Positions 5,562-62,580 of a stretch of DNA of 64,000 nucleotides are shown piece after piece (the first letter of the stretch is position 1; every line of letters starts with the position of its first letter). Under the pieces are notes generated by a model. The model made no database searches and was not told where the DNA came from. It saw only the letters and a list, made by a program, of their open reading frames with translations. The DNA lies in NCBI RefSeq assembly GCF_003790525.1, contig NZ_CP033636.1; one strand, given 5' to 3'. The position numbers and the translations under genes are program-made. The stretch comes from Escherichia coli. GTDB lineage: Bacteria > Pseudomonadota > Gammaproteobacteria > Enterobacterales > Enterobacteriaceae.

Positions 5562-6120
5562 CTGAGAGATCCCCTCATAATTTCCCCAAAGCGTAACCAT
5601 GTGTGAATAAATTTTGAGCTAGTAGGGTTGCAGCCACGAGTAAGTCTTCCCTTGTTATTGTGTAGCCAGAATGCCGCAAAACTTCCATGCCTAAGCGAAC
5701 TGTTGAGAGTACGTTTCGATTTCTGACTGTGTTAGCCTGGAAGTGCTTGTCCCAACCTTGTTTCTGAGCATGAACGCCCGCAAGCCAACATGTTAGTTGA
5801 AGCATCAGGGCGATTAGCAGCATGATATCAAAACGCTCTGAGCTGCTCGTTCGGCTATGGCGTAGGCCTAGTCCGTAGGCAGGACTTTTCAAGTCTCGGA
5901 AGGTTTCTTCAATCTGCATTCGCTTCGAATAGATATTAACAAGTTGTTTGGGTGTTCGAATTTCAACAGGTAAGTTAGTTGCTAGAACCCATGGCTCCTT
6001 TGCCGACGCTGAGTAGATTTTAGGTGACGGGTGGTGACAATGAGTCCGTGTCGAGCGCTGATTTTTTCGGCCTTTAGAGCGAGATTTATACAATAGAATT
6101 TGGCATGAGATTGGATTGCT
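5562..6120 (-). mobile_element. IS10 fragment (inside end plus 3' part of transposase gene), truncated by IS26
   Basis: CTGAGAGATCCCCTCATAATTTCCCC end; 172-aa ORF 5575-6093 matches IS10 transposase C-terminus (...EETFRDLKSPAYGLGLRHSRTSSSERFDIMLLIALML...). Confidence 0.8.
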
Positions 6121-6940
6121 GGCACTGTTGCAAAGTTAGCGATGAGGCAGCCTTTTGTCTTATTCAAAGGCCTTACATTTCAAAAACTCTGCTTACCAGG
6201 CGCATTTCGCCCAGGGGATCACCATAATAAAATGCTGAGGCCTGGCCTTTGCGTAGTGCACGCATCACCTCAATACCTTTGATGGTGGCGTAAGCCGTCT
6301 TCATGGATTTAAATCCCAGCGTGGCGCCGATTATCCGTTTCAGTTTGCCATGATCGCATTCAATCACGTTGTTCCGGTACTTAATCTGTCGGTGTTCAAC
6401 GTCAGACGGGCACCGGCCTTCGCGTTTGAGCAGAGCAAGCGCGCGACCATAGGCGGGCGCTTTATCCGTGTTGATGAATCGCGGGATCTGCCACTTCTTC
6501 ACGTTGTTGAGGATTTTACCCAGAAACCGGTATGCAGCTTTGCTGTTACGACGGGAGGAGAGATAAAAATCGACAGTGCGGCCCCGGCTGTCGACGGCCC
6601 GGTACAGATACGCCCAGCGGCCATTGACCTTCACGTAGGTTTCATCCATGTGCCACGGGCAAAGATCGGAAGGGTTACGCCAGTACCAGCGCAGCCGTTT
6701 TTCCATTTCAGGCGCATAACGCTGAACCCAGCGGTAAATCGTGGAGTGATCGACATTCACTCCGCGTTCAGCCAGCATCTCCTGCAGCTCACGGTAACTG
6801 ATGCCGTATTTGCAGTACCAGCGTACGGCCCACAGAATGATGTCACGCTGAAAATGCCGGCCTTTGAATGGGTTCATGTGCAGCTCCATCAGCAAAAGGG
6901 GATGATAAGTTTATCACCACCGACTATTTGCAACAGTGCC
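6121..6940 (-). mobile_element. IS26 copy 1 (820 bp)
   Basis: 14-bp terminal IRs GGCACTGTTGCAAA / TTTGCAACAGTGCC at exact 820-bp spacing; flanks ggattgct / acttgacc (no target duplication). Confidence 0.95.
6173..6877 (-). CDS. tnpA: IS26 transposase Tnp26 (IS6 family), G184 reference form
   Basis: 234-aa [35 protein letters not shown]... with ...[10 protein letters not shown]... Confidence 0.95.
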   Translation of the reverse strand: MNPFKGRHFQRDIILWAVRWYCKYGISYRELQEMLAERGVNVDHSTIYRWVQRYAPEMEKRLRWYWRNPSDLCPWHMDETYVKVNGRWAYLYRAVDSRGRTVDFYLSSRRNSKAAYRFLGKILNNVKKWQIPRFINTDKAPAYGRALALLKREGRCPSDVEHRQIKYRNNVIECDHGKLKRIIGATLGFKSMKTAYATIKGIEVMRALRKGQASAFYYGDPLGEMRLVSRVFEM

Positions 6941-9720: not shown

Positions 9721-10540
9721 GGCACTGTTGCAAAGTTAGCGATGAGGCAGCCTTTTGTCTTATTCAAAGGCCTTACATTTCAAAAACTCTGCTTACCAGG
9801 CGCATTTCGCCCAGGGGATCACCATAATAAAATGCTGAGGCCTGGCCTTTGCGTAGTGCACGCATCACCTCAATACCTTTGATGGTGGCGTAAGCCGTCT
9901 TCATGGATTTAAATCCCAGCGTGGCGCCGATTATCCGTTTCAGTTTGCCATGATCGCATTCAATCACGTTGTTCCGGTACTTAATCTGTCGGTGTTCAAC
10001 GTCAGACGGGCACCGGCCTTCGCGTTTGAGCAGAGCAAGCGCGCGACCATAGGCGGGCGCTTTATCCGTGTTGATGAATCGCGGGATCTGCCACTTCTTC
10101 ACGTTGTTGAGGATTTTACCCAGAAACCGGTATGCAGCTTTGCTGTTACGACGGGAGGAGAGATAAAAATCGACAGTGCGGCCCCGGCTGTCGACGGCCC
10201 GGTACAGATACGCCCAGCGGCCATTGACCTTCACGTAGGTTTCATCCATGTGCCACGGGCAAAGATCGGAAGGGTTACGCCAGTACCAGCGCAGCCGTTT
10301 TTCCATTTCAGGCGCATAACGCTGAACCCAGCGGTAAATCGTGGAGTGATCGACATTCACTCCGCGTTCAGCCAGCATCTCCTGCAGCTCACGGTAACTG
10401 ATGCCGTATTTGCAGTACCAGCGTACGGCCCACAGAATGATGTCACGCTGAAAATGCCGGCCTTTGAATGGGTTCATGTGCAGCTCCATCAGCAAAAGGG
10501 GATGATAAGTTTATCACCACCGACTATTTGCAACAGTGCC
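9721..10540 (-). mobile_element. IS26 copy 2 (820 bp)
   Basis: Exact IS26 IRs; flanks ccgtagaa / attctcac (no target duplication); truncates intI1. Confidence 0.95.
9773..10477 (-). CDS. tnpA: IS26 transposase Tnp26, G184 form
   Basis: Identical 234-aa product to copy 1. Confidence 0.95.
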
Positions 10541-10829
10541 ATTCTCACATGCGATCTCGAGTAGCCAGTTGTGGAAAACCGACATAAACATCCCCTGTTA
10601 CCCTGAAACTCTACTCACCATTTTTTCATAATTATATACAAACAGCCAGAAAGGCTGTTACAGGCGATTTGATCTGCAACCTATTGGTTAAATTAATGTA
10701 TCAAAAACGATGGTTTCTGTGACACATCCCTATAAGCAGTTGCCTATACAATAAAACGCTCTCCGGCTGTAACAAAACCCGTTACAGTATCAATACAACA
10801 AAAACGATGTAACAAAATAGGGTGGCAAA

Positions 10830-10976: not shown

Positions 10977-12193
<1,217 letters not shown>

Positions 12194-15630: not shown

Positions 15631-16450
15631 GGCACTGTTGCAAATAGTCGGTGGTGATAAACTTATCATCCCCTTTTGCTGATGGAGCTGCACATGAACC
15701 CATTCAAAGGCCGGCATTTTCAGCGTGACATCATTCTGTGGGCCGTACGCTGGTACTGCAAATACGGCATCAGTTACCGTGAGCTGCAGGAGATGCTGGC
15801 TGAACGCGGAGTGAATGTCGATCACTCCACGATTTACCGCTGGGTTCAGCGTTATGCGCCTGAAATGGAAAAACGGCTGCGCTGGTACTGGCGTAACCCT
15901 TCCGATCTTTGCCCGTGGCACATGGATGAAACCTACGTGAAGGTCAATGGCCGCTGGGCGTATCTGTACCGGGCCGTCGACAGCCGGGGCCGCACTGTCG
16001 ATTTTTATCTCTCCTCCCGTCGTAACAGCAAAGCTGCATACCGGTTTCTGGGTAAAATCCTCAACAACGTGAAGAAGTGGCAGATCCCACGATTCATCAA
16101 CACGGATAAAGCGCCCGCCTATGGTCGCGCGCTTGCTCTGCTCAAACGCGAAGGCCGGTGCCCGTCTGACGTTGAACACCGACAGATTAAGTACCGGAAC
16201 AACGTGATTGAATGCGATCATGGCAAACTGAAACGGATAATCAACGCCACGCTGGGATTTAAATCCATGAAGACGGCTTACGCCACCATCAAAGGTATTG
16301 AGGTGATGCGTGCACTACGCAAAGGCCAGGCCTCAGCATTTTATTATGGTGATCCCCTGGGCGAAATGCGCCTGGTAAGCAGAGTTTTTGAAATGTAAGG
16401 CCTTTGAATAAGACAAAAGGCTGCCTCATCGCTAACTTTGCAACAGTGCC
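15631..16450 (+). mobile_element. IS26 copy 4 (820 bp), G184N variant type, flanked by 8-bp direct repeat CTTCTGGT
   Basis: Exact IS26 IRs; 15623-15630 and 16451-16458 both CTTCTGGT (target site duplication of a simple insertion). Confidence 0.95.
15694..16398 (+). CDS. tnpA: IS26 transposase, G184N variant
   Basis: ...[15 protein letters not shown]... Confidence 0.9.
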   Translation: MNPFKGRHFQRDIILWAVRWYCKYGISYRELQEMLAERGVNVDHSTIYRWVQRYAPEMEKRLRWYWRNPSDLCPWHMDETYVKVNGRWAYLYRAVDSRGRTVDFYLSSRRNSKAAYRFLGKILNNVKKWQIPRFINTDKAPAYGRALALLKREGRCPSDVEHRQIKYRNNVIECDHGKLKRIINATLGFKSMKTAYATIKGIEVMRALRKGQASAFYYGDPLGEMRLVSRVFEM

Positions 16451-37278: not shown

Positions 37279-37669
37279 TCAGGACCGCTGCCGGAGCGCA
37301 ACCCACTCACTACAGCAGAGCCATGTAGACAACATCCCCTCCCCCTTTCCACCGCGTCAGACGCCCGTAGCAGCCCGCTACGGGCTTTTTCATGCCCTGC
37401 CCTAGCGTCCAAGCCTCACGGCCGCGCTCGGCCTCTCTGGCGGCCTTCTGGCGCTCCTGCTGCGGCGTCCGCTCGTGGGCCGTGGCGCGGGTCCGCGCGC
37501 CGGCCTCGTGCGCCTGGCGCTCGCGGGCGAGGTCCAGGGCGGCCGTCTTCACGTTCTGCCTTGCGCAGATGAGATAGGAGAGCATGAAAAACCTCGGGGC
37601 AGCCATCGAATGATGCCATCTACAGGGGTTAAAATAACCACCATCATTTCATAACAATACCTGCTGACT

Positions 37670-38260
37670 ATGAAGATCTACGTCATCAAAATAGCAGTTC
37701 ATGGAGTCAGTCCGATGGTCTGGCGTCGGCTGAGAATTGCTGCCGACACGTCACTGGCCGCGCTTCACTTCATTTTCCAGATAGTGCAGGGCTGGGGGGA
37801 CGACCATCTCCATCAATTTCACATTTATGGCAAAGATTACGGTATCTCCTACGAAGGAGGCATCGGTTTTGTCGATAATCCGTTCCGGGTCGTGATTGAT
37901 GATTTTGCTTTTGATGCTGGCGATCGCTTTACCTATGAATACAATTTCTTTGAGCACTGGCTTCATGACATTCGTGTTGAGGCCATTTATGAAAACTCTA
38001 CGCTGAAAGCGCCGTTTTGTATAAGCGGCCATGGTATGCCCGGAGCCACAGCTGCGGATGAGTTCGATAAAACCCTGGCGTTTCTTGAAGCTATCGTTAA
38101 TGCGGATGATGAAACAACGGTCGGCGAGATCCGCCCTTTTGCTGACGACCTGGATGCTGTCAGGTTCAACCGCCACAAAATCAACCGGCAACTGAGCAGG
38201 CTCGACCTTGCATCTCCGGTACTGGAGCCTGAAGTTATCTGGCTGGGCCGTCGTCGCTGA
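37670..38260 (+). CDS. plasmid pRiA4b ORF-3-like protein
   Basis: MKIYVIKIAVHGVSPMVWRRLRIAADTSLAALHFIFQIVQGWGDDHLHQF... matches the remembered IYQLKITL...PIWRR...LH..IQ...GW...HLH.F signature. Confidence 0.55.
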   Translation: MKIYVIKIAVHGVSPMVWRRLRIAADTSLAALHFIFQIVQGWGDDHLHQFHIYGKDYGISYEGGIGFVDNPFRVVIDDFAFDAGDRFTYEYNFFEHWLHDIRVEAIYENSTLKAPFCISGHGMPGATAADEFDKTLAFLEAIVNADDETTVGEIRPFADDLDAVRFNRHKINRQLSRLDLASPVLEPEVIWLGRRR

Positions 38261-38396
38261 CTGATGTCTATAAAGGTATACGTTTTCAGCATGCCTCTCA
38301 GATCCCCGAAAAAATGTCTATAAACCTCCCTAAATCAGTGTTTATGGATTATTCTTTAAATCTCTATGATGTTTAAAGACCTTCCGGAGGTTTTGC

Positions 38397-38969
38397 GTGC
38401 AATATGCCTACATCAGGGTAAGCTCGGCCGATCAGAATACGGCCCGTCAGGAAGAGGCATTGTCAAAGGCGGGTTTTCAGCCTGATAAAATTTGTGTTGA
38501 GCATGCCAGCGCGAAGGACACAAACCGCCCGGGGTTACAGGAACTCCTGGGGCAATTACGCCCTGGTGATACGCTTCTGGTTCATTCCATCGATCGCCTT
38601 TGCCGGAATATGTCGGATATGTGCGCTGTCACCACCCGGCTTCGTGACCAGGGCGTTACCCTTATTTTTCTGAAAGAGCAGCTGACGTTCAGCGCCGGCA
38701 CAAACAATCCGATGCAGGAACTGCAGCTGCACATGATGTCGGCATTCAGCCAGTTTGAACGAGCCTTACTGAAGGAAAGGCAGGCCGACGGCATCGCCGC
38801 GAAAAAAGCACGGGGTGAAAAAACAGGGCGCCCCGGCGCCGATATCAAAAAGATCCAGGAAATTGACGCACTCAGAAGCAGAGGGGTCAGGCTCAGGATC
38901 GCCTGCGACCATGCGGGCCTTGGCGTTTCCACATATTATAAGCTTCGTCACCAGATGAACAACCAGTAG
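38397..38969 (+). CDS. serine recombinase / resolvase
   Basis: MQYAYIRVSSADQNTARQEEALSKAGFQPDKICVEHASAKDTNRPGLQELLGQLRPGDTLLVHSIDRLCR...; upstream direct repeats ATGTCTATAAA x2 (res-like). Confidence 0.8.
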   Translation: MQYAYIRVSSADQNTARQEEALSKAGFQPDKICVEHASAKDTNRPGLQELLGQLRPGDTLLVHSIDRLCRNMSDMCAVTTRLRDQGVTLIFLKEQLTFSAGTNNPMQELQLHMMSAFSQFERALLKERQADGIAAKKARGEKTGRPGADIKKIQEIDALRSRGVRLRIACDHAGLGVSTYYKLRHQMNNQ

Positions 38970-39002
38970 CCGGGAGATAGTCATCCACCACAGCAGGAGG
39001 CA

Positions 39003-40397
39003 ATGATGCAACTGACGCTCCAGATAGTCATCACCGATGAATCAGGCTCCAGTCGAACGGAGGAACTGATGACAATCCAGAAATCAGGGGAGACCCGGAA
39101 CGACATCGGATTATCGGTGTCAGAATCCAAGCTGTTGCTGAATACGGTCCAGCAGTCGGTGGTCCAGCTGCAGGCAGACGAATATACTCAACACCATATC
39201 CGGTGCCCTCACTGCCTTGCTGCGCGCAGAATCAAAGGCAAACAGAAAATACGGTACCGGACGCTGTTTGGCGTTATTCCGGTATCCGGGCTTCGGGTGT
39301 ACCGGTGCCGTTGTGAAGAGAGTGATACAAAGACAGTCAGTTTGCTCAGCGACTGGGCCGGCGATTATTCTCACCCGGCACTGAAATATATTGAAACCCG
39401 CTGGGCCTCGATGATCTCCTATGAAATGACGACTCGTCTGCTGAAAGATATTCTGCCGGTGGGCCACAGCCTGAATGCCTCAACGGTGAGGAATCATTTA
39501 TGCCAGGTGGCGCAGCGTCTTGACGCTGAGGCTGAAGCTCATTCAGGTTTTCTTTCCGGCTGCCCCCGCGACTGGGGGAACCTGCCCAGGCCAGGAAAAC
39601 CGCTTGTGGTGGGTATAGATGGTGGTTATGTTCGCGATCGGGATGACAAAAAGCGTAATTTTGAAATTATTGCCGGGAAGTCTTTTTCCGTTGGTGCGCC
39701 TGCTGACACCCGCCGCTTCGGTTTTGTTCAGAAGGATGACTGTCATCCGGAACGCAGGCTCATGACCCACCTTTCAGCGCAGGGAATGCAGGCCAACCAG
39801 CAGATATTTTTTCTGTCCGACGGCGCGGATAATCTCAGGGACCTCCAGTTCGGTATGTACCCTGAGTCAACGCATGTGCTGGACTGGTTTCATATCACCA
39901 TGAGGCTGAAGGTGCTCATGCAATATGCCCGGGGACTGCTGGTATCAGATCCAGAGGCGGGGAGTAAAGTTCTGGCACTGCTGGAAAGCATTAAACGATA
40001 TCTCTGGCATGGCAATGTTGTCGCTGCGCTGGAACATATTGATAATTGCGTTATGTATTGCGATGACCCTGAACTCAGCTATCCTAGCCTGAAATCCCTG
40101 CAAAAACATCTGGATGAAATGTATACCTACATCCGGAATAATAAGATGATGATCCCAAACTACGGCGAAATGCGTCGGTACGGAGAGCCGGTATCAACCG
40201 CGTTTGTGGAATCCACGATCAATGAAGTGATCGCCAGACGAATGGCCAAAAAGCAGCAGATGCAGTGGAGCAGAAAAGGGGCTCATTATTTGTTACAGAC
40301 CCGGACCGCCGTTTTGAATAACGAACTGCAGGATAAATTTGTCTGCTGGTATCCGGGTTTTCAAAGTGACGGGAAGGGACCAGCGATGGCAGCATAG
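39003..40397 (+). CDS. DDE transposase, ISKra4-family-like (possibly ISKpn19-like element)
   Basis: 464-aa protein with CPHC...C.C zinc-finger-like N-terminal segment and large catalytic domain; family assignment from memory, unverified. Confidence 0.5.
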   Translation: MMQLTLQIVITDESGSSRTEELMTIQKSGETRNDIGLSVSESKLLLNTVQQSVVQLQADEYTQHHIRCPHCLAARRIKGKQKIRYRTLFGVIPVSGLRVYRCRCEESDTKTVSLLSDWAGDYSHPALKYIETRWASMISYEMTTRLLKDILPVGHSLNASTVRNHLCQVAQRLDAEAEAHSGFLSGCPRDWGNLPRPGKPLVVGIDGGYVRDRDDKKRNFEIIAGKSFSVGAPADTRRFGFVQKDDCHPERRLMTHLSAQGMQANQQIFFLSDGADNLRDLQFGMYPESTHVLDWFHITMRLKVLMQYARGLLVSDPEAGSKVLALLESIKRYLWHGNVVAALEHIDNCVMYCDDPELSYPSLKSLQKHLDEMYTYIRNNKMMIPNYGEMRRYGEPVSTAFVESTINEVIARRMAKKQQMQWSRKGAHYLLQTRTAVLNNELQDKFVCWYPGFQSDGKGPAMAA

Positions 40398-40420
40398 CTC
40401 ACGCTGCCCCAATATTTTTT

Positions 40421-40858
40421 ATGCTCTCGGTCGTATGGAAGCTGGACCGCCTCGGTCGTGATCTTCGTCATCTCATTAATACAGTGCACGACCTGACCGC
40501 GAGGGGGACCGGTCTGAAAGTGCTGACCGGTCACGGGGCGACTATCGACACAACAACGGCCGCTGGCAAGCTTGTCTTCGGTATCTTTGCCGCACTGGCG
40601 GAGTTTGAGCGCGAACTGATTGCTGAAAGAACGACTGCAGGTCTGGCATCAGCAAGAGCCCGTGGGCGGAACGGCGGCCGACCTTATAAAATGACGCCAG
40701 TCAAACTGCGACTGGCAATGGCATCAATGGGACAATCAGAAACAAAGGTCAGTACGCTATGCCAGGAACTTGGGATAACCCGGCAAACTTTGTACAGGCA
40801 TATTTCCCCTGTTGGTCAACTGCGGGCGGACGGGATCAAGCTGCTCAACCGTGGATAA
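40421..40858 (+). pseudogene. tnpR: Tn3-family resolvase gene fragment (C-terminal two-thirds)
   Basis: Begins at ...[67 protein letters not shown]...; lacks N-terminal catalytic serine region. Confidence 0.7.
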
Positions 40859-40908
40859 TTTGAACGGACGGAAAAATCTGGGGTTCCGGCGTAGTACCCC
40901 TATCACCT

Positions 40909-40928
40909 CCACATTTTTGCAACAGTGC
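40909..40928 (+). repeat. orphan IS6-family (IS26-like) terminal repeat
   Basis: CACATTTTTGCAACAGTGCC, ending in the exact 14-bp IS26 IR TTTGCAACAGTGCC with diverged subterminal sequence; no adjacent IS body. Confidence 0.4.
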
Positions 40929-41176
40929 CTTATAAATGGCAGCCTTATGTTTACTTGCCAAGATGGGCTACCATATGATGTTTTATACTGAGCAATATTA
41001 ATATTATCTTTAATGGAAAAATTAAGCCCACTAAGTGACCCACTGCTATATGGCTCTATTGTGAAGACGCCTGAGGGTAAAAATTTATACATGGTTGTCC
41101 CTATGTCTATTATTGCAAGGTTGACAATATTATTCGTTTTATAAATTTGAGCGTTTAAAATCACACATCAAAGCAA

Positions 41177-41833
41177 TTAGTCAGGATAAACAACAATACC
41201 CAGTGCTTCGAGAATCAGTTCTTGCTGCCAGGCTGCAATTTTGATACCTGATGTATCGACTTTGCGGGGATCTAAACCGTCGAGTTCGGCGTGGCATAAA
41301 TTGGCACCCTGTAGGCTAAATTGCCCCCAGACATCTTCGGAAAAAACACCTCGACTTAAGTCTGACTCTTTCAGTGATGCACCCGCTAGGTTCGTTCCTA
41401 TCCAGCGATTTTCAAACAACTCACATTTTTCTAAACAAACCCTCTCCATATTGGCATAGGAAAGATTACATCCAGAAATAAATGCTGAGCAAAAGTACAT
41501 ACGATTACTCACTTGATGGGCAAAGTTTGTTCGGGAAAAGTTGGCACCTTTTAAATCACACGCACGGAACTCTATACCGTAGCAATTGGCATTACTGAAG
41601 TTTGCCATCGCAAGTTGGCATTGTTGGAAACTTGCATCACGAAGATCTGCGACATCAAAGTGGCAGCCTTCGATATCACCCTGTTCAATGAACTTGCAGT
41701 TGACGAATGTCGTATCACGCAAGTTAGCACGTCGAAAGTCGCTGCGAATGAATGTGCAAGCGGTGAAGGTGAGATCACTTAAGTCTTTATGTGAAAAGTT
41801 GTGGTGCCGATATGTATGATTGTAGGTTTCCAT
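41177..41833 (-). CDS. qnrS1: pentapeptide-repeat quinolone resistance protein QnrS1
   Basis: 218-aa METYNHTYRHHNFSHKDLSDLTFTACTFIRSDFRRANLRDTTFVNCKFIEQGDIEGCHFDVADLRDASFQQC... Confidence 0.95.
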   Translation of the reverse strand: METYNHTYRHHNFSHKDLSDLTFTACTFIRSDFRRANLRDTTFVNCKFIEQGDIEGCHFDVADLRDASFQQCQLAMANFSNANCYGIEFRACDLKGANFSRTNFAHQVSNRMYFCSAFISGCNLSYANMERVCLEKCELFENRWIGTNLAGASLKESDLSRGVFSEDVWGQFSLQGANLCHAELDGLDPRKVDTSGIKIAAWQQELILEALGIVVYPD

Positions 41834-42136
41834 GAGTACTCCTTGTTGAAAGGAGGGCTAGACTACCATTATACATATGCCAAGACATTAAAATAAAAGC
41901 CTGTTACATCAACACATTACAACCCCTCAATTTACCTGTTTTAAGTGGTCAAATTGGCGCGTAGAGCGCCTATCGCTCTTGCATTGGCACGCGGCCCTGT
42001 TGAAAAAAGTTATTCGCTTTAGATAGGGTTAGGAGAGCCGTGCTTCGCCGGTAAAAAATCGGACTATCCGACGCAGGGCGGACTCATCGGCGGAGAAGCA
42101 AACTTTGACTATATCTCCCTACACTTGGAAGAGGGC

Positions 42137-42847
42137 TAGACTGGCCCCATAGATCACCAGACACTTCGACTCTCTTAAAATAAGAGGTAGTCTTGGAACT
42201 ATGTTTAATACCAGTCAGAACGATAAGATGGTTGAAGTGTTATCAGGACCTGAGCGGCGTCGGCGTCGTACACCGCAGGAAAAAATTGCCATTATTCAGC
42301 AGACTATGGAGCCCGGTATGACCGTGTCTCATGTCGCGCGCCTGCATGGCATCAATGCAAACCAGATATTCAAATGGCGCAAGCAATATTAAGACGGTTC
42401 ACTGACGGCTGTTGCATCGGGCGAGGAAGTGGTGCCGGCCTCCGAACTCGCTGCCGCCAATAAGCAAATTCGCGAACTCCAGCGCCTTCTGGGCAAAAAG
42501 ACGATGGAAGCCGAGATACTCAAAGAGGCCGTGGAGTTCGGCCGGGCAAAAAAATGGATTGCGCATGCGCCCTCGTTGCCTGGGAACGACGAATAAGCGA
42601 CGTTTGCAGAAGTCTTAGCGTGTCGCGTGCGCAGTTGAGCATTCGGGTTCACCGGCCATCTGACTGACAGGATCGCAGACGGCAGCCCCGTTCTGACGAT
42701 ACCACCGTATTGTCCCGGATAAACATGGCGGTGGCTGACCTGCCGACGTATGGTTATCGCCGTGTGTGGGCGCTGCTGCGACGGGAGTCGGAGCGGGACG
42801 GCCTGCCTGTGGTTAATGCAAAGCGGGTGTATCGCATTATGAGAACG
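42137..42847 (+). mobile_element. IS3-family (IS2-group, ISEcl2-like) element fragment: left IR, orfA and 5' part of orfB, truncated by IS26
   Basis: Begins TAGACTGGCCCC...; orfA 42201-42392 [63 protein letters not shown]; downstream frames continue IS2-like OrfB. Confidence 0.7.
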
Positions 42848-43667
42848 GGCACTGTTGCAAATAGTCGGTGGTGATAAACTTATCATCCCCTTTTGCTGAT
42901 GGAGCTGCACATGAACCCATTCAAAGGCCGGCATTTTCAGCGTGACATCATTCTGTGGGCCGTACGCTGGTACTGCAAATACGGCATCAGTTACCGTGAG
43001 CTGCAGGAGATGCTGGCTGAACGCGGAGTGAATGTCGATCACTCCACGATTTACCGCTGGGTTCAGCGTTATGCGCCTGAAATGGAAAAACGGCTGCGCT
43101 GGTACTGGCGTAACCCTTCCGATCTTTGCCCGTGGCACATGGATGAAACCTACGTGAAGGTCAATGGCCGCTGGGCGTATCTGTACCGGGCCGTCGACAG
43201 CCGGGGCCGCACTGTCGATTTTTATCTCTCCTCCCGTCGTAACAGCAAAGCTGCATACCGGTTTCTGGGTAAAATCCTCAACAACGTGAAGAAGTGGCAG
43301 ATCCCGCGATTCATCAACACGGATAAAGCGCCCGCCTATGGTCGCGCGCTTGCTCTGCTCAAACGCGAAGGCCGGTGCCCGTCTGACGTTGAACACCGAC
43401 AGATTAAGTACCGGAACAACATGATTGAATGCGATCATGGCAAACTGAAACGGATAATCGGCGCCACGCTGGGATTTAAATCCATGAAGACGGCTTACGC
43501 CACCATCAAAGGTATTGAGGTGATGCGTGCACTACGCAAAGGCCAGGCCTCAGCATTTTATTATGGTGATCCCCTGGGCGAAATGCGCCTGGTAAGCAGA
43601 GTTTTTGAAATGTAAGGCCTTTGAATAAGACAAAAGGCTGCCTCATCGCTAACTTTGCAACAGTGCC
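42848..43667 (+). mobile_element. IS26 copy 5 (820 bp), V171M transposase variant
   Basis: Exact IS26 IRs; flanks tgagaacg / cactagtg. Confidence 0.95.
42911..43615 (+). CDS. tnpA: IS26 transposase, V171M ([10 protein letters not shown]), G184 form
   Basis: Single substitution relative to copies 1, 2, 6. Confidence 0.9.
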
Positions 43668-49299: not shown

Positions 49300-49482
49300 C
49301 AAAGCTATGCAATCGACGGCAAAAAGCTTCGTTCGCTTCGCGCACTACGCCTTTTCCGCGATTGATAGCGACGTTATGTGAATATTGAAATGAGCATTCC
49401 AAAGAAAGGAAGTAGAAAAATTATCGTGGGCGAAAATGAGTTTTTGTGGCTCATTAGGTCAAAACTCACATATTCGCAGGAC

Positions 49483-50721
<1,239 letters not shown>

Positions 50722-61089: not shown

Positions 61090-61502
61090 TTACTGATCCG
61101 TTCTCAAGTATTGATACAGGGTTTCGCGACTGATTCCGAATTCACGAGCAAGCTTGGTCTTTTGCTCGCCAGCCTCGACACGTTGGCGCAGTTCGGCAAT
61201 ACGCTCAGACGACAGGGATTTCTTCCTGCCACGGTAAGCCCCGCGTTGCTTGGCGAGCGCAATACCCTCGCGCTGACGCTCGCGGATCAGGGCGCGCTCG
61301 AACTCGGCGAACGCGCCCATCACCGAGAGCATCAGGTTCGCCATCGGAGAGTCTTCGCCAGTAAAACTGAGGTGTTCCTTGACGAATTCGATATGCACGC
61401 CGCGTTGTGTCAGCGTTTGCACGATCCGGCGCAAATCATCGAGATTGCGCGCCAGGCGATCCATGCTATGCACCACCACGGTGTCGCCGGTGCGGGCGAA
61501 GC
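61090..61502 (-). pseudogene. tnpR: Tn21-family resolvase tnpR, 5'-truncated by IS26
   Basis: ...FARTGDTVVVHSMDRLARNLDDLRRIVQTLTQRGVHIEFVKEHLSFTGEDSPMANLMLSVMGAFAEFERALIRERQREGIALAKQRG...YLRTDQ. Confidence 0.85.
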
Positions 61503-62322
61503 GGCACTGTTGCAAATAGTCGGTGGTGATAAACTTATCATCCCCTTTTGCTGATGGAGCTGCACATGAACCCATTCAAAGGCCGGCATTTTCAGCGTGA
61601 CATCATTCTGTGGGCCGTACGCTGGTACTGCAAATACGGCATCAGTTACCGTGAGCTGCAGGAGATGCTGGCTGAACGCGGAGTGAATGTCGATCACTCC
61701 ACGATTTACCGCTGGGTTCAGCGTTATGCGCCTGAAATGGAAAAACGGCTGCGCTGGTACTGGCGTAACCCTTCCGATCTTTGCCCGTGGCACATGGATG
61801 AAACCTACGTGAAGGTCAATGGCCGCTGGGCGTATCTGTACCGGGCCGTCGACAGCCGGGGCCGCACTGTCGATTTTTATCTCTCCTCCCGTCGTAACAG
61901 CAAAGCTGCATACCGGTTTCTGGGTAAAATCCTCAACAACGTGAAGAAGTGGCAGATCCCACGATTCATCAACACGGATAAAGCGCCCGCCTATGGTCGC
62001 GCGCTTGCTCTGCTCAAACGCGAAGGCCGGTGCCCGTCTGACGTTGAACACCGACAGATTAAGTACCGGAACAACGTGATTGAATGCGATCATGGCAAAC
62101 TGAAACGGATAATCAACGCCACGCTGGGATTTAAATCCATGAAGACGGCTTACGCCACCATCAAAGGTATTGAGGTGATGCGTGCACTACGCAAAGGCCA
62201 GGCCTCAGCATTTTATTATGGTGATCCCCTGGGCGAAATGCGCCTGGTAAGCAGAGTTTTTGAAATGTAAGGCCTTTGAATAAGACAAAAGGCTGCCTCA
62301 TCGCTAACTTTGCAACAGTGCC
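61503..62322 (+). mobile_element. IS26 copy 7 (820 bp), G184N variant type
   Basis: Exact IS26 IRs; flanks ggcgaagc / aatcttcc. Confidence 0.95.
61566..62270 (+). CDS. tnpA: IS26 transposase, G184N variant
   Basis: ...[15 protein letters not shown]... Confidence 0.9.
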   Translation: MNPFKGRHFQRDIILWAVRWYCKYGISYRELQEMLAERGVNVDHSTIYRWVQRYAPEMEKRLRWYWRNPSDLCPWHMDETYVKVNGRWAYLYRAVDSRGRTVDFYLSSRRNSKAAYRFLGKILNNVKKWQIPRFINTDKAPAYGRALALLKREGRCPSDVEHRQIKYRNNVIECDHGKLKRIINATLGFKSMKTAYATIKGIEVMRALRKGQASAFYYGDPLGEMRLVSRVFEM

Positions 62323-62580
62323 AATCTTCCCGCCTTTACCATCGAAAGCGATAAACCAGAAATCGTCCGTGCCAGTTTCAAGATTTCTGCAACGTTTCAG
62401 ATGCCATCCGCCTTCTCTCGCCCAGATGGTACGGTTATTTCTGGCATTCGTTTTGTCATACCCGTGCTCGTCAAGCCAGCTATCAAAGCTGGTCAGCCCC
62501 AGGTCCTGAACCTCCAGAGAAGGTACACGAATGACCTGCAAGGTATGGCGTGGTCTTGGCTCTCTCATCTTGATCTCTTC

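Follow-up and report, generated by a model that had tools for sequence, protein, structure and literature searches.

How did the quinolone-resistance gene qnrS1 come to lie beside the remnant of one resolvase gene and, just beyond it, a transposable element that carries a complete resolvase gene of a different kind? The question is posed by a stretch of 64,000 nt of Escherichia coli contig NZ_CP033636.1 (assembly GCF_003790525.1), the whole of which we refer to as the window. The element, at 37578-40428, is ISKpn19 itself, in an intact copy, and ISKpn19 next to a truncated tnpR (ΔtnpR) and qnrS1 is among the commonest quinolone-resistance contexts in Enterobacterales. We consider it very likely that this intact copy carries a resolvase-res module, that it follows a Tn3-like logic and that its two flanks were drawn from two different targets. 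An earlier note, made from the letters of the window, had instead described a composite element, possibly ISKpn19-like, inserted into and splitting a Tn3-family tnpR.

Identity and boundaries of ISKpn19 in the window

We place the ends of the element at 37578 and 40428 because a pair of inverted repeats lies there, because homology to other contexts (those in the plasmids pTPqnrS-1a and pK432-TEM) stops exactly at both positions, and because Guérillot et al. (2014; PMC3942029) list in their Table S1, under ISKpn19, an element from pK245 of 2851 bp with the same two repeat sequences. The reference copy, under the name used in ISfinder, is that of Klebsiella pneumoniae pK245 (NC_010886, 35120-37970). 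The element, its terminal repeats and its three genes, all of them on the same strand, are as follows.

37578-40428, plus strand: complete ISKpn19, 2851 bp (ISKra4 family, ISAzba1 group)
37578-37603, plus strand: left terminal inverted repeat (IRL), GAGAGCATGAAAAACCTCGGGGCAGC, 26 nt, of which 22/26 are complementary to 40403-40428
40403-40428, plus strand: right terminal inverted repeat (IRR), GCTGCCCCAATATTTTTTATGCTCTC, with a fortuitous ATG at 40421 inside the repeat
37670-38260, plus strand: pRiA4b ORF-3-like gene, 196 aa (PF07929, E=8e-32, residues 2-168)
38397-38969, plus strand: small serine recombinase of the resolvase/invertase type, GTG start, 190 aa (PF00239, E=1e-39)
39003-40397, plus strand: DDE transposase, ISKra4 family (Mutator-like, p-MULT 4), 464 aa, or 463 aa when translated from the second ATG

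In length, in its 26-nt repeats (22/26) and in its gene set the window copy is the same as the reference, and no difference between them was detected; the nucleotide comparison with the reference covers the approximately 400 nt of its start that are printed in Table S1, to which the window is identical. The same table lists a transposase of 463 aa and the extra open reading frames (ORFs) ‘pRiA4b_ORF-3, S Recomb’, and assigns ISKpn19 to the ISAzba1 group, Mutator-like p-MULT 4 (PMC3942029). Copies whose transposase was named as ISKpn19 family by the NCBI annotation pipeline PGAP are 99.9-100% identical to that of the window, with 0-2 nt differences among the copies compared, and more than 1000 PLSDB plasmids have the interval 37300-41200 at approximately 100% identity, the label in the matching plasmids being ‘ISKra4-like element ISKpn19 family transposase’. 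Among 5426 complete E. coli genomes, 718 have ISKpn19 sequence; an exact-pattern scan of metagenome contigs for both ends of the insertion sequence (IS) returned two loci only.

The suggestion that the element might be ISKpn19-like was thus borne out by its length, repeats, gene content and public annotation, and the inverted repeats that the earlier note proposed to look for proved to be the 26-nt pair above. It is, though, not a composite but one undivided element, bounded by one pair of terminal repeats, and while the features that had been placed in the range from 37670 are indeed present, the element starts at 37578 and ends at 40428. The first ORF of that range, which had been left unnamed, is the pRiA4b-ORF3-like gene.

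The protein of the first gene matches PDB entry 2I1S, a hypothetical protein, with E=2e-12. Its start is annotated in two ways, PLSDB records giving 181 aa (WP_001493763, from 37715) and newer RefSeq records 196 aa (WP_012477564); in the 196-aa form the PF07929 match already starts at residue 2. A pRiA4b-ORF3-family protein in another record (NZ_CP146941) is called ‘IS1096 element passenger TnpR family protein’ by NCBI, and the recurrence of this domain in the accessory gene of IS1096, to which ISKpn19 is unrelated, is a hint that the first gene of ISKpn19 may have a role related to transposition. The second protein is a complete serine resolvase, as the earlier note had stated. It aligns to the Gin invertase and to the Sin, Tn3 and gamma-delta resolvases with its catalytic residues conserved, R7, S9, D65, R66 and R69 corresponding to R8, S10, D67, R68 and R71 of the Tn3 resolvase, and alignment to the Tn3 (5CY1) and gamma-delta resolvases shows that it also possesses the C-terminal helix-turn-helix. 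The third, the 464-aa protein, was correctly taken for an ISKra4-like DDE transposase: it matches the NCBIfam model NF033572, ‘ISKra4 family transposase’, over residues 25-442 with 380.7 bits (cut-off 205), and it had no match in a Pfam scan, the Tn3 transposase domains included.

The resolvase, its candidate sites and its relatives

If the resolvase acts in transposition of the element, then where would it act? In the whole window there are exactly two copies of ATGTCTATAAA (38264 and 38314), where 0.01 would be expected by chance. These copies, which had been noticed earlier as res-like repeats upstream of the resolvase gene, are above chance and form part of a conserved region with three subsites.

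38265-38379, no strand assigned: candidate res site with three dimer-type subsites, approximately 115 bp, between the pRiA4 and resolvase genes
38265-38291, no strand assigned: candidate res site A, TGTCTATAAAGGTATACGTTTTCAGCA, with a central GTATAC
38315-38348, no strand assigned: candidate res site B, TGTCTATAAA...TTTATGGA
38353-38379, no strand assigned: candidate res site C, TCTTTAAA and TTTAAAGA separated by 11 nt

The repeat forms the left half-site in two of the three inverted-repeat subsites, which measure 27-34 bp. We observed the same architecture in eight aligned elements whose transposase identities range from 50 to 94%. Across these eight, ATAAAGGTA of site A is invariant and the adjacent bases of its central GTATAC are nearly so, and the half-sites of site B co-vary, from TCTATAAA/TTTATGGA to TCTCTAAA/TTTAGAGA to TCTATAAA/TTTATAGA, which is the pattern that would be expected for sites bound by a dimer. 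In size and in its three-site layout the region is similar to the res of gamma-delta and Tn3, and its conserved architecture and repeats make 38265-38379 a candidate for function as res. Crossover would be predicted at the TA in the middle of GTATAC (38276-38281).

The pairing of a serine resolvase with a transposase of this type had been called unusual in the earlier note. It had in fact been catalogued in 2014, when ISKpn19, ISEc51, ISAfe13 and ISCot1 were all listed with ‘pRiA4b_ORF-3, S Recomb’ (PMC3942029), and as the resolvase-carrying architecture of the ISAzba1 group was described then, the structure itself adds nothing new. In the same catalogue the pRiA4 ORF is common to 12 ISAzba1-group elements, of which five have a serine recombinase and one a tyrosine recombinase. 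ISEc51, ISAfe13 and ISCot1 share with ISKpn19 both the three-gene layout and terminal repeats of the GAG...GGGG type.

The pairing is also conserved more widely. We scanned the transposase against one genome per species, and in nine of the ten full-length relatives fetched, which are from other hosts and have transposase identities of 50-94%, the order pRiA4-resolvase-transposase is kept, with the same res-like region. These elements are in Erwinia, Morganella, Pantoea, Photorhabdus (two), Xenorhabdus (two) and Photobacterium (two), one Xenorhabdus and one Photobacterium element being cut by a contig end. The resolvase is the more conserved of the two proteins, with 95-97% identity where the transposase has 87-94%, and 63-69% where the transposase has 52-59%.

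We consider that the ISKpn19 resolvase probably resolves cointegrates in the manner of Tn3, as Guérillot et al. proposed (PMC3942029). Alternatively, could the resolvase together with its sites be passenger cargo that plays no part in transposition and instead serves plasmid multimer resolution or stability, to the benefit of carrier plasmids, or works as a DNA invertase switch? The closest solved relative of the protein is the Gin invertase rather than a resolvase, which would be in keeping with cargo, as would an element of Enterobacter asburiae (NZ_VRKN01000051, 2155 bp) with 89% transposase identity that is without the resolvase gene, yet has kept the transposase and pRiA4 genes, and the fact that other ISAzba1-group members have either no recombinase or a tyrosine recombinase (PMC3942029). 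However, the gene and its upstream sites occupy the same position across chromosomes and plasmids of distant genera, each element has one cluster of sites only, without a further inverted site on which an invertase could act, and the tyrosine recombinase of ISCep1 is carried in the same slot (PMC3942029), which argues for a resolution role that can be filled by either type of enzyme. We therefore regard the cargo explanation as improbable. Lacking the res region as well, the E. asburiae element is a naturally occurring deletion variant and might reveal whether an element of this kind can do without its resolvase.

Mismatched flanks of the window copy

If ISKpn19 is an intact element, how did it come to adjoin a tnpR that is not? 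The DNA on the two sides of the copy is as follows.

37279-37577, no strand assigned: left flank, the part of Tn1721 that runs from tetR(A) to the position of its internal 38-bp repeat IRRI, from comparison with uninterrupted Tn1721
40429-40858, plus strand: ΔtnpR, the 3′ remnant of the Tn6292 resolvase gene (residues 63-204 of 204), a pseudogene without the catalytic serine
41177-41833, minus strand: qnrS1 (NF000056 QnrS, 517 bits; QnrS1 in matching records)
42137-42837, plus strand: left part of ISEcl2 (ΔISEcl2; IS2-like, IS3 family), cut by IS26, coordinates approximate

On the right, tnpR is broken after the second base of codon 62, exactly at the end of IRR. The ORF at 40421-40858 covers positions 68-144 only of the resolvase-domain profile; with residues 1-62 missing, the remnant does not have a complete catalytic domain with the active-site serine, and PGAP describes it as ‘recombinase family protein, incomplete, missing N-terminus’. 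The earlier note was correct in seeing here the C-terminal two-thirds of a different resolvase, in assigning it to a Tn3-family tnpR and in placing qnrS1 next to the element, except that the true start of the remnant is 40429, the ATG at 40421 belonging to IRR. The gene is that of the Tn3-family transposon Tn6292, named by Feng et al. (2016; PMC5027574). Its intact 204-aa tnpR, which we located by tblastn in plasmids, is present in pTPqnrS-1a and in pOXA-181-type plasmids; upstream of the intact gene there are palindromes of the TGTCACA type and a divergent ORF with the N-terminal domain of Tn3 TnpA, annotated by PGAP as DUF4158. In pTPqnrS-1a, a small Salmonella plasmid, qnrS1 lies beside the intact tnpR with 99.8% identity to the window down to 40429, and in pIMP-1495 the final approximately 190 bp of tnpA lie on the other side of ISKpn19, together with a terminal repeat whose last bases are ...GAACCCC. 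An intact tnpR with 100% identity was also sought in the protein database, where the near-identical matches proved to be artefactual fusions, either of orf5 with ΔtnpR or reading through from the end of the IS.

Several features of this remnant and its relatives in other records deserve mention. The 145-aa ORF that starts at the ATG in IRR has been called as a protein publicly (cluster P0001, 291 member sequences), and there are longer read-through fusions from the IS end (clusters P0003 and P0036); all are annotation artefacts of the truncated tnpR. In Logan contig SRR6185862_204 (positions 1402-2001), qacEΔ1-sul1-orf5 is fused in frame to the same ΔtnpR without ISKpn19, at a point 2-3 bp from the breakpoint in the window. 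In pK432-TEM (NZ_OP821751, 2101-6257), tnpR codons 1-97 are 100% identical and lie behind a tniA-tniB-tniQ module of the Tn5053/Tn402 type; this version and that of Tn6292 are homologous only from 41 bp before the ATG onwards, by the palindrome TGTCACATAATCGAACGTATATGTGACA, and the arrangement looks like a hybrid formed by recombination at a res site. ISKpn19 interrupts tnpR in this plasmid 107 bp downstream of the breakpoint in the window, directly before a GGGG run.

Beyond qnrS1 there is an IS2-type end, TAGACTGGCCCC, at 42137, then an orfA-like ORF at 42201-42392, and homology to IS26 from approximately 42838. In order, orientation and breakpoints, window positions 37578-42837 are the same as the widespread platform ‘ΔISEcl2-qnrS1-ΔtnpR-ISKpn19’ of Sun et al. 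(2016; PMC5034289), and the junction of IRR with ΔtnpR is present in 1148 PLSDB plasmids. The arrangement in the window is therefore an ordinary one that has already been published.

The left flank has a different origin. Its last 9 bp, 37569-37577, are ATGAGATAG, the outside half of an insertion site at a repeat tip, and uninterrupted Tn1721 (in pFORC74_3) reads GATGAGATA followed by GGGGAGCCCGCAGAATTCGG, the tip of the Tn1721 repeat also being given as GGGGAGCCCGC. The left junction, ...GATGAGATAG followed by IRL, thus lies 1 bp inside the repeat tip, and exactly this junction of Tn1721 with IRL occurs in 189 PLSDB plasmids.

Could these flanks have arisen by one simple insertion into an intact tnpR, with both halves of the gene and a target duplication on either side of the element? 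That IRR abuts tnpR exactly at the repeat boundary is what such an insertion would produce. Nevertheless, the 62 N-terminal codons, the res and the tnpA fragment on that side of Tn6292 are absent from the whole 64-kb window, Tn1721 DNA forms the left flank, the adjoining 9 bp on the left (ATGAGATAG) do not match those on the right (GGTCGTATG), and a query of PLSDB with a chimera of tnpR codons 12-62 and IRL yielded no direct junction of the tnpR N-terminus with IRL among approximately 1870 matching plasmids. We give this explanation scarcely any credence, and for this window it is refuted. The earlier view of an insertion into tnpR stands insofar as the gene is cut exactly at the right end of the element, but the gene is not split, residues 63-204 being all of it that is present. 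Since the left flank is Tn1721 and the tnpR N-terminus is absent, the comparison with an uninterrupted tnpR that the earlier note had proposed could find no target duplication for this copy. The sole two-piece match to the tnpR-IRL query, pK432-TEM, was set aside as the different junction 107 bp further into the gene described above.

While the right junction is constant, the left flank varies between plasmids. Elsewhere it consists of relE, umuC-like genes, an IS30-family fragment, DNA from the blaLAP side, DNA from the side of a Tn3 repeat or Tn6292 tnpA, and the Shigella plasmid pSTLIN_17 has the left junction of the window with a different right junction. This mixture of junctions and the variability of left flanks indicate that copies exchange flanks. 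At some of the left junctions (loci L012/L038 and L014) two different umuC-like genes are cut by IRL, after ...GACAATTTG and ...AGCAAATTG, respectively, by eye at a homologous codon.

These observations are most likely to be explained by replicative transposition, action of the resolvase at the proposed res, and an origin of the mismatched flanks in a cointegrate or in recombination. The transposase would join the ends of the element to the target with a 9-bp stagger, so that cointegrates could form, and the resolvase would separate the two copies at the res upstream of its gene. Where resolution failed, or where copies at different places recombined, a copy with flanks from two targets could result. 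For the copy in the window, the left side would be a new junction, in which an insertion at the internal Tn1721 repeat tip has left its outside half, and the right side an old junction with codon 62 of Tn6292 tnpR, with qnrS1 carried along; the copy would then be either one of the two junction-bearing copies of a cointegrate between a qnrS1 donor and a Tn1721 target, or a recombinant between copies. Either route would move qnrS1. The indirect evidence that is consistent with such a mechanism comprises the adjacent deletion of approximately 2.6 kb of Tn6292 tnpA beside ISKpn19, the inverted copies that flank ΔtnpR-qnrS1 in some plasmids, and the mention in the literature of ISKpn19-mediated plasmid cointegration or fusion, with reference to Xie et al. 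(2018).

Several points weigh against this account. The nearest solved relative of the resolvase is an invertase, and the E. asburiae element is without the gene, as described above. A clean simple insertion with its duplication is equally compatible with cut-and-paste transposition. Neither the junction of the tnpR N-terminus with IRL nor the reciprocal Tn1721 junction (IRR followed by ATGAGATAG GGGAGCCC) was found in PLSDB, and because neither was found, the order of events for this copy is not reconstructable. A search with IRR and GGGAGCCCGC... was also discarded, returning only a different site, with the spacer TCATACTG, at the outer Tn1721 repeat.

Another origin of the truncated tnpR also has to be weighed, namely, that a nearby copy of ISKpn19 transposed replicatively within the same molecule, in an event of either the inversion or the deletion type. 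The source could be the copy in Tn6292 tnpA (as in pTPqnrS-1a and the IncX3 pOXA-181 plasmids, which differ from the window in that tnpR is intact and ISKpn19 is in tnpA) or one in ISEcl2 downstream of qnrS1. The geometry has some appeal: in the plasmids with an intact tnpR, ISKpn19 is 521 bp away in the opposite orientation; it lies between codon 58 and the last approximately 190 bp of tnpA, which amounts to the adjacent deletion of approximately 2.6 kb noted above; and the inverted copies of ISKpn19 that flank ΔtnpR-qnrS1 in some plasmids (locus L007; pP10164-3, PMC5034289) fit an event of the inversion type. However, the left flanks that it predicts, a 5′ fragment of tnpA or ISEcl2 DNA, were not seen, the window having Tn1721 instead, the start of ISEcl2 on the right of the window is uninterrupted, and extra steps would be needed either way. 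Derivation from the pTPqnrS-1a/pOXA-181 arrangement by one inversion was consequently rejected as a complete explanation, since its predicted left flank is absent, and we view an intramolecular event as possible but doubtful.

Insertion at Tn3-family repeat tips and comparison with known systems

The left junction raises a further question, that is, does ISKpn19 choose its targets? In pLH09-a-B both flanks of an insertion are present, in the order ...GGGCTGCATAG, the IS, GCTGCATAG and GGGTCTGACGC, with GCTGCATAG duplicated on each side, and the reconstructed empty site is found uninterrupted, at 240/240 positions, in 13 other plasmids. From this insertion and its matching empty site it follows that ISKpn19 makes a 9-bp duplication, comprising eight flanking bases and the first G of the repeat.

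The same spacing recurs elsewhere. At 12 independent sites in at least 77 plasmids, and in both orientations, we observed that ISKpn19 ends exactly 8 bp outside the tip of a Tn3-family 38-bp repeat, as compared with roughly 0.1 estimated under random insertion. The PLSDB records comprise 38 with IRR and 39 with IRL facing the repeat, and the full-coverage alignments among the matches listed each span exactly 116 bp. The spacers on the IRR-facing side are CACTATAC, ACAGGATC, TGCGATTA, TCATCCTT and GCTGCATA before GGGGTCTGACGC, and TCATACTG before the Tn1721 tip GGGGAGCCCGC; those on the IRL-facing side are TTCAAGTG, TTGAAGTC, TAAAAGCG, TCTTAATA, TAATCTGT, AAGGATGA and AATGAAGG, the last of which adjoins a different Tn3-family repeat. 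As AAGGATGA is the reverse complement of TCATCCTT, the same site has been hit in both orientations. The loci concerned are window positions 37569-37577, locus L039 (320-3179) and the junctions in loci L004, L007, L012, L036-L038 and L040-L045. The left junction of the window, at the internal Tn1721 repeat IRRI, obeys the 8-bp spacing. We also considered a left tip of GGAGAGC with an 8-bp duplication and rejected it, as GAGAGC is preceded by different bases in the repeat-facing IRL junctions (G, C, G, A, T, A, G) and as the 8-bp spacing is the same at both ends of the element.

Not every junction conforms. No such repeats adjoin the tnpR codon-62 junction, the tnpA codon-58 junction or a site in ISEcl2, and the umuC-like junctions described above are likewise outside the rule. 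The ISEcl2 site is 56 bp inside the left end, just upstream of qnrS1, and corresponds to window position 42192, where the window is uninterrupted; at the same nucleotide, one plasmid has IRL and an E. coli chromosome has IRR (locus L034, 4501; locus L007, minus strand), so that the site is either a second hot spot or an inversion product. No clear 9-bp duplication was seen around the Morganella, Pantoea, Xenorhabdus and Photobacterium relatives, and one relative (L024) has a possible 5-bp repeat, TATTT. The window itself is a heavily rearranged multiresistance region with at least seven copies of IS26 (6120-6940, 9721-10543, 10977-11797, 15631-16450, 42838-43667, 49481-50302 and 61499-62323), and it has two Tn3-type repeat tips and one Tn1721 repeat tip (13383, 50868 and 32089), none of which has ISKpn19 beside it.

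On balance, we judge the chances to be about even that ISKpn19 is a targeted element, one that inserts in either orientation, stops exactly 8 bp short of the outer tip of the 38-bp terminal repeat in Tn3-family transposons (Tn3/Tn2, Tn1721 and a KPC-associated relative) and duplicates 9 bp. This preference, which goes beyond what the earlier note had suggested, is the sole part of our observations that may be new: the catalogue portion of PMC3942029 enters direct repeats as 0 for the ISAzba1-group entries consulted, including ISKpn19, and gives no target preference there, and we found no description of either the 9-bp duplication or the repeat-tip targeting in the open literature, ISfinder being outside that search. 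If such targeting is real, homing combined with cointegrates or recombination would explain the accumulation of ISKpn19 and qnrS1 in Tn3-rich resistance regions, annotators would have a rule by which to recognise insertion sites and recombinant copies of ISKpn19, and ISKpn19 would offer a readily studied example of a transposon family that is drawn to the ends of a different one.

How, then, does ISKpn19 compare with systems that are already known? It probably works like an element of the Tn3 family and is not a member of it. Both have a resolvase gene after a region of approximately 115 bp with three subsites (candidate subsites in the case of ISKpn19), mismatched flanks, adjacent deletions and reported cointegrates. 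In contrast, the DDE_Tnp_Tn3 transposase of the Tn3 family is unrelated to the ISKra4/Mutator-like transposase of ISKpn19, the target duplication is 5 bp in the former and 9 bp in the latter, the terminal repeats are 38 nt and 26 nt, respectively, and the genes of ISKpn19, unlike those of the Tn3 family, are all on one strand. The Tn3 transposase, the 38-bp repeats and the 5-bp duplication that define membership are thus all lacking in ISKpn19.

Elements that seek out other transposons have precedents. IS4321 and IS5075, of the IS110 family, insert inside the 38-bp repeats of Tn21-type transposons, and Tn5053 belongs to the ‘res hunters’; these are mobile elements directed, as ISKpn19 would be, to a structural feature in transposons of a different family. 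Where IS4321 and IS5075 enter the repeat, ISKpn19 stops just outside it and leaves it intact, and it differs from them also in inserting in both orientations, in its DDE transposase and in its 9-bp duplication. A parallel may also be drawn with the TnGBS, ISLre2 and ISKra4-group elements, whose transposases are of a related superfamily and which enter DNA 13-17 bp upstream of sigma-A promoters (PMC3942029); they and ISKpn19 alike insert at a set distance from a recognisable feature of the DNA. The feature itself is not the same, however, for none of the 45 ISKpn19 junctions considered in that study (0/45) was near a promoter, and what TnGBS, ISLre2 and the ISKra4 group find in promoters ISKpn19 appears to find in the tips of Tn3-family repeats.

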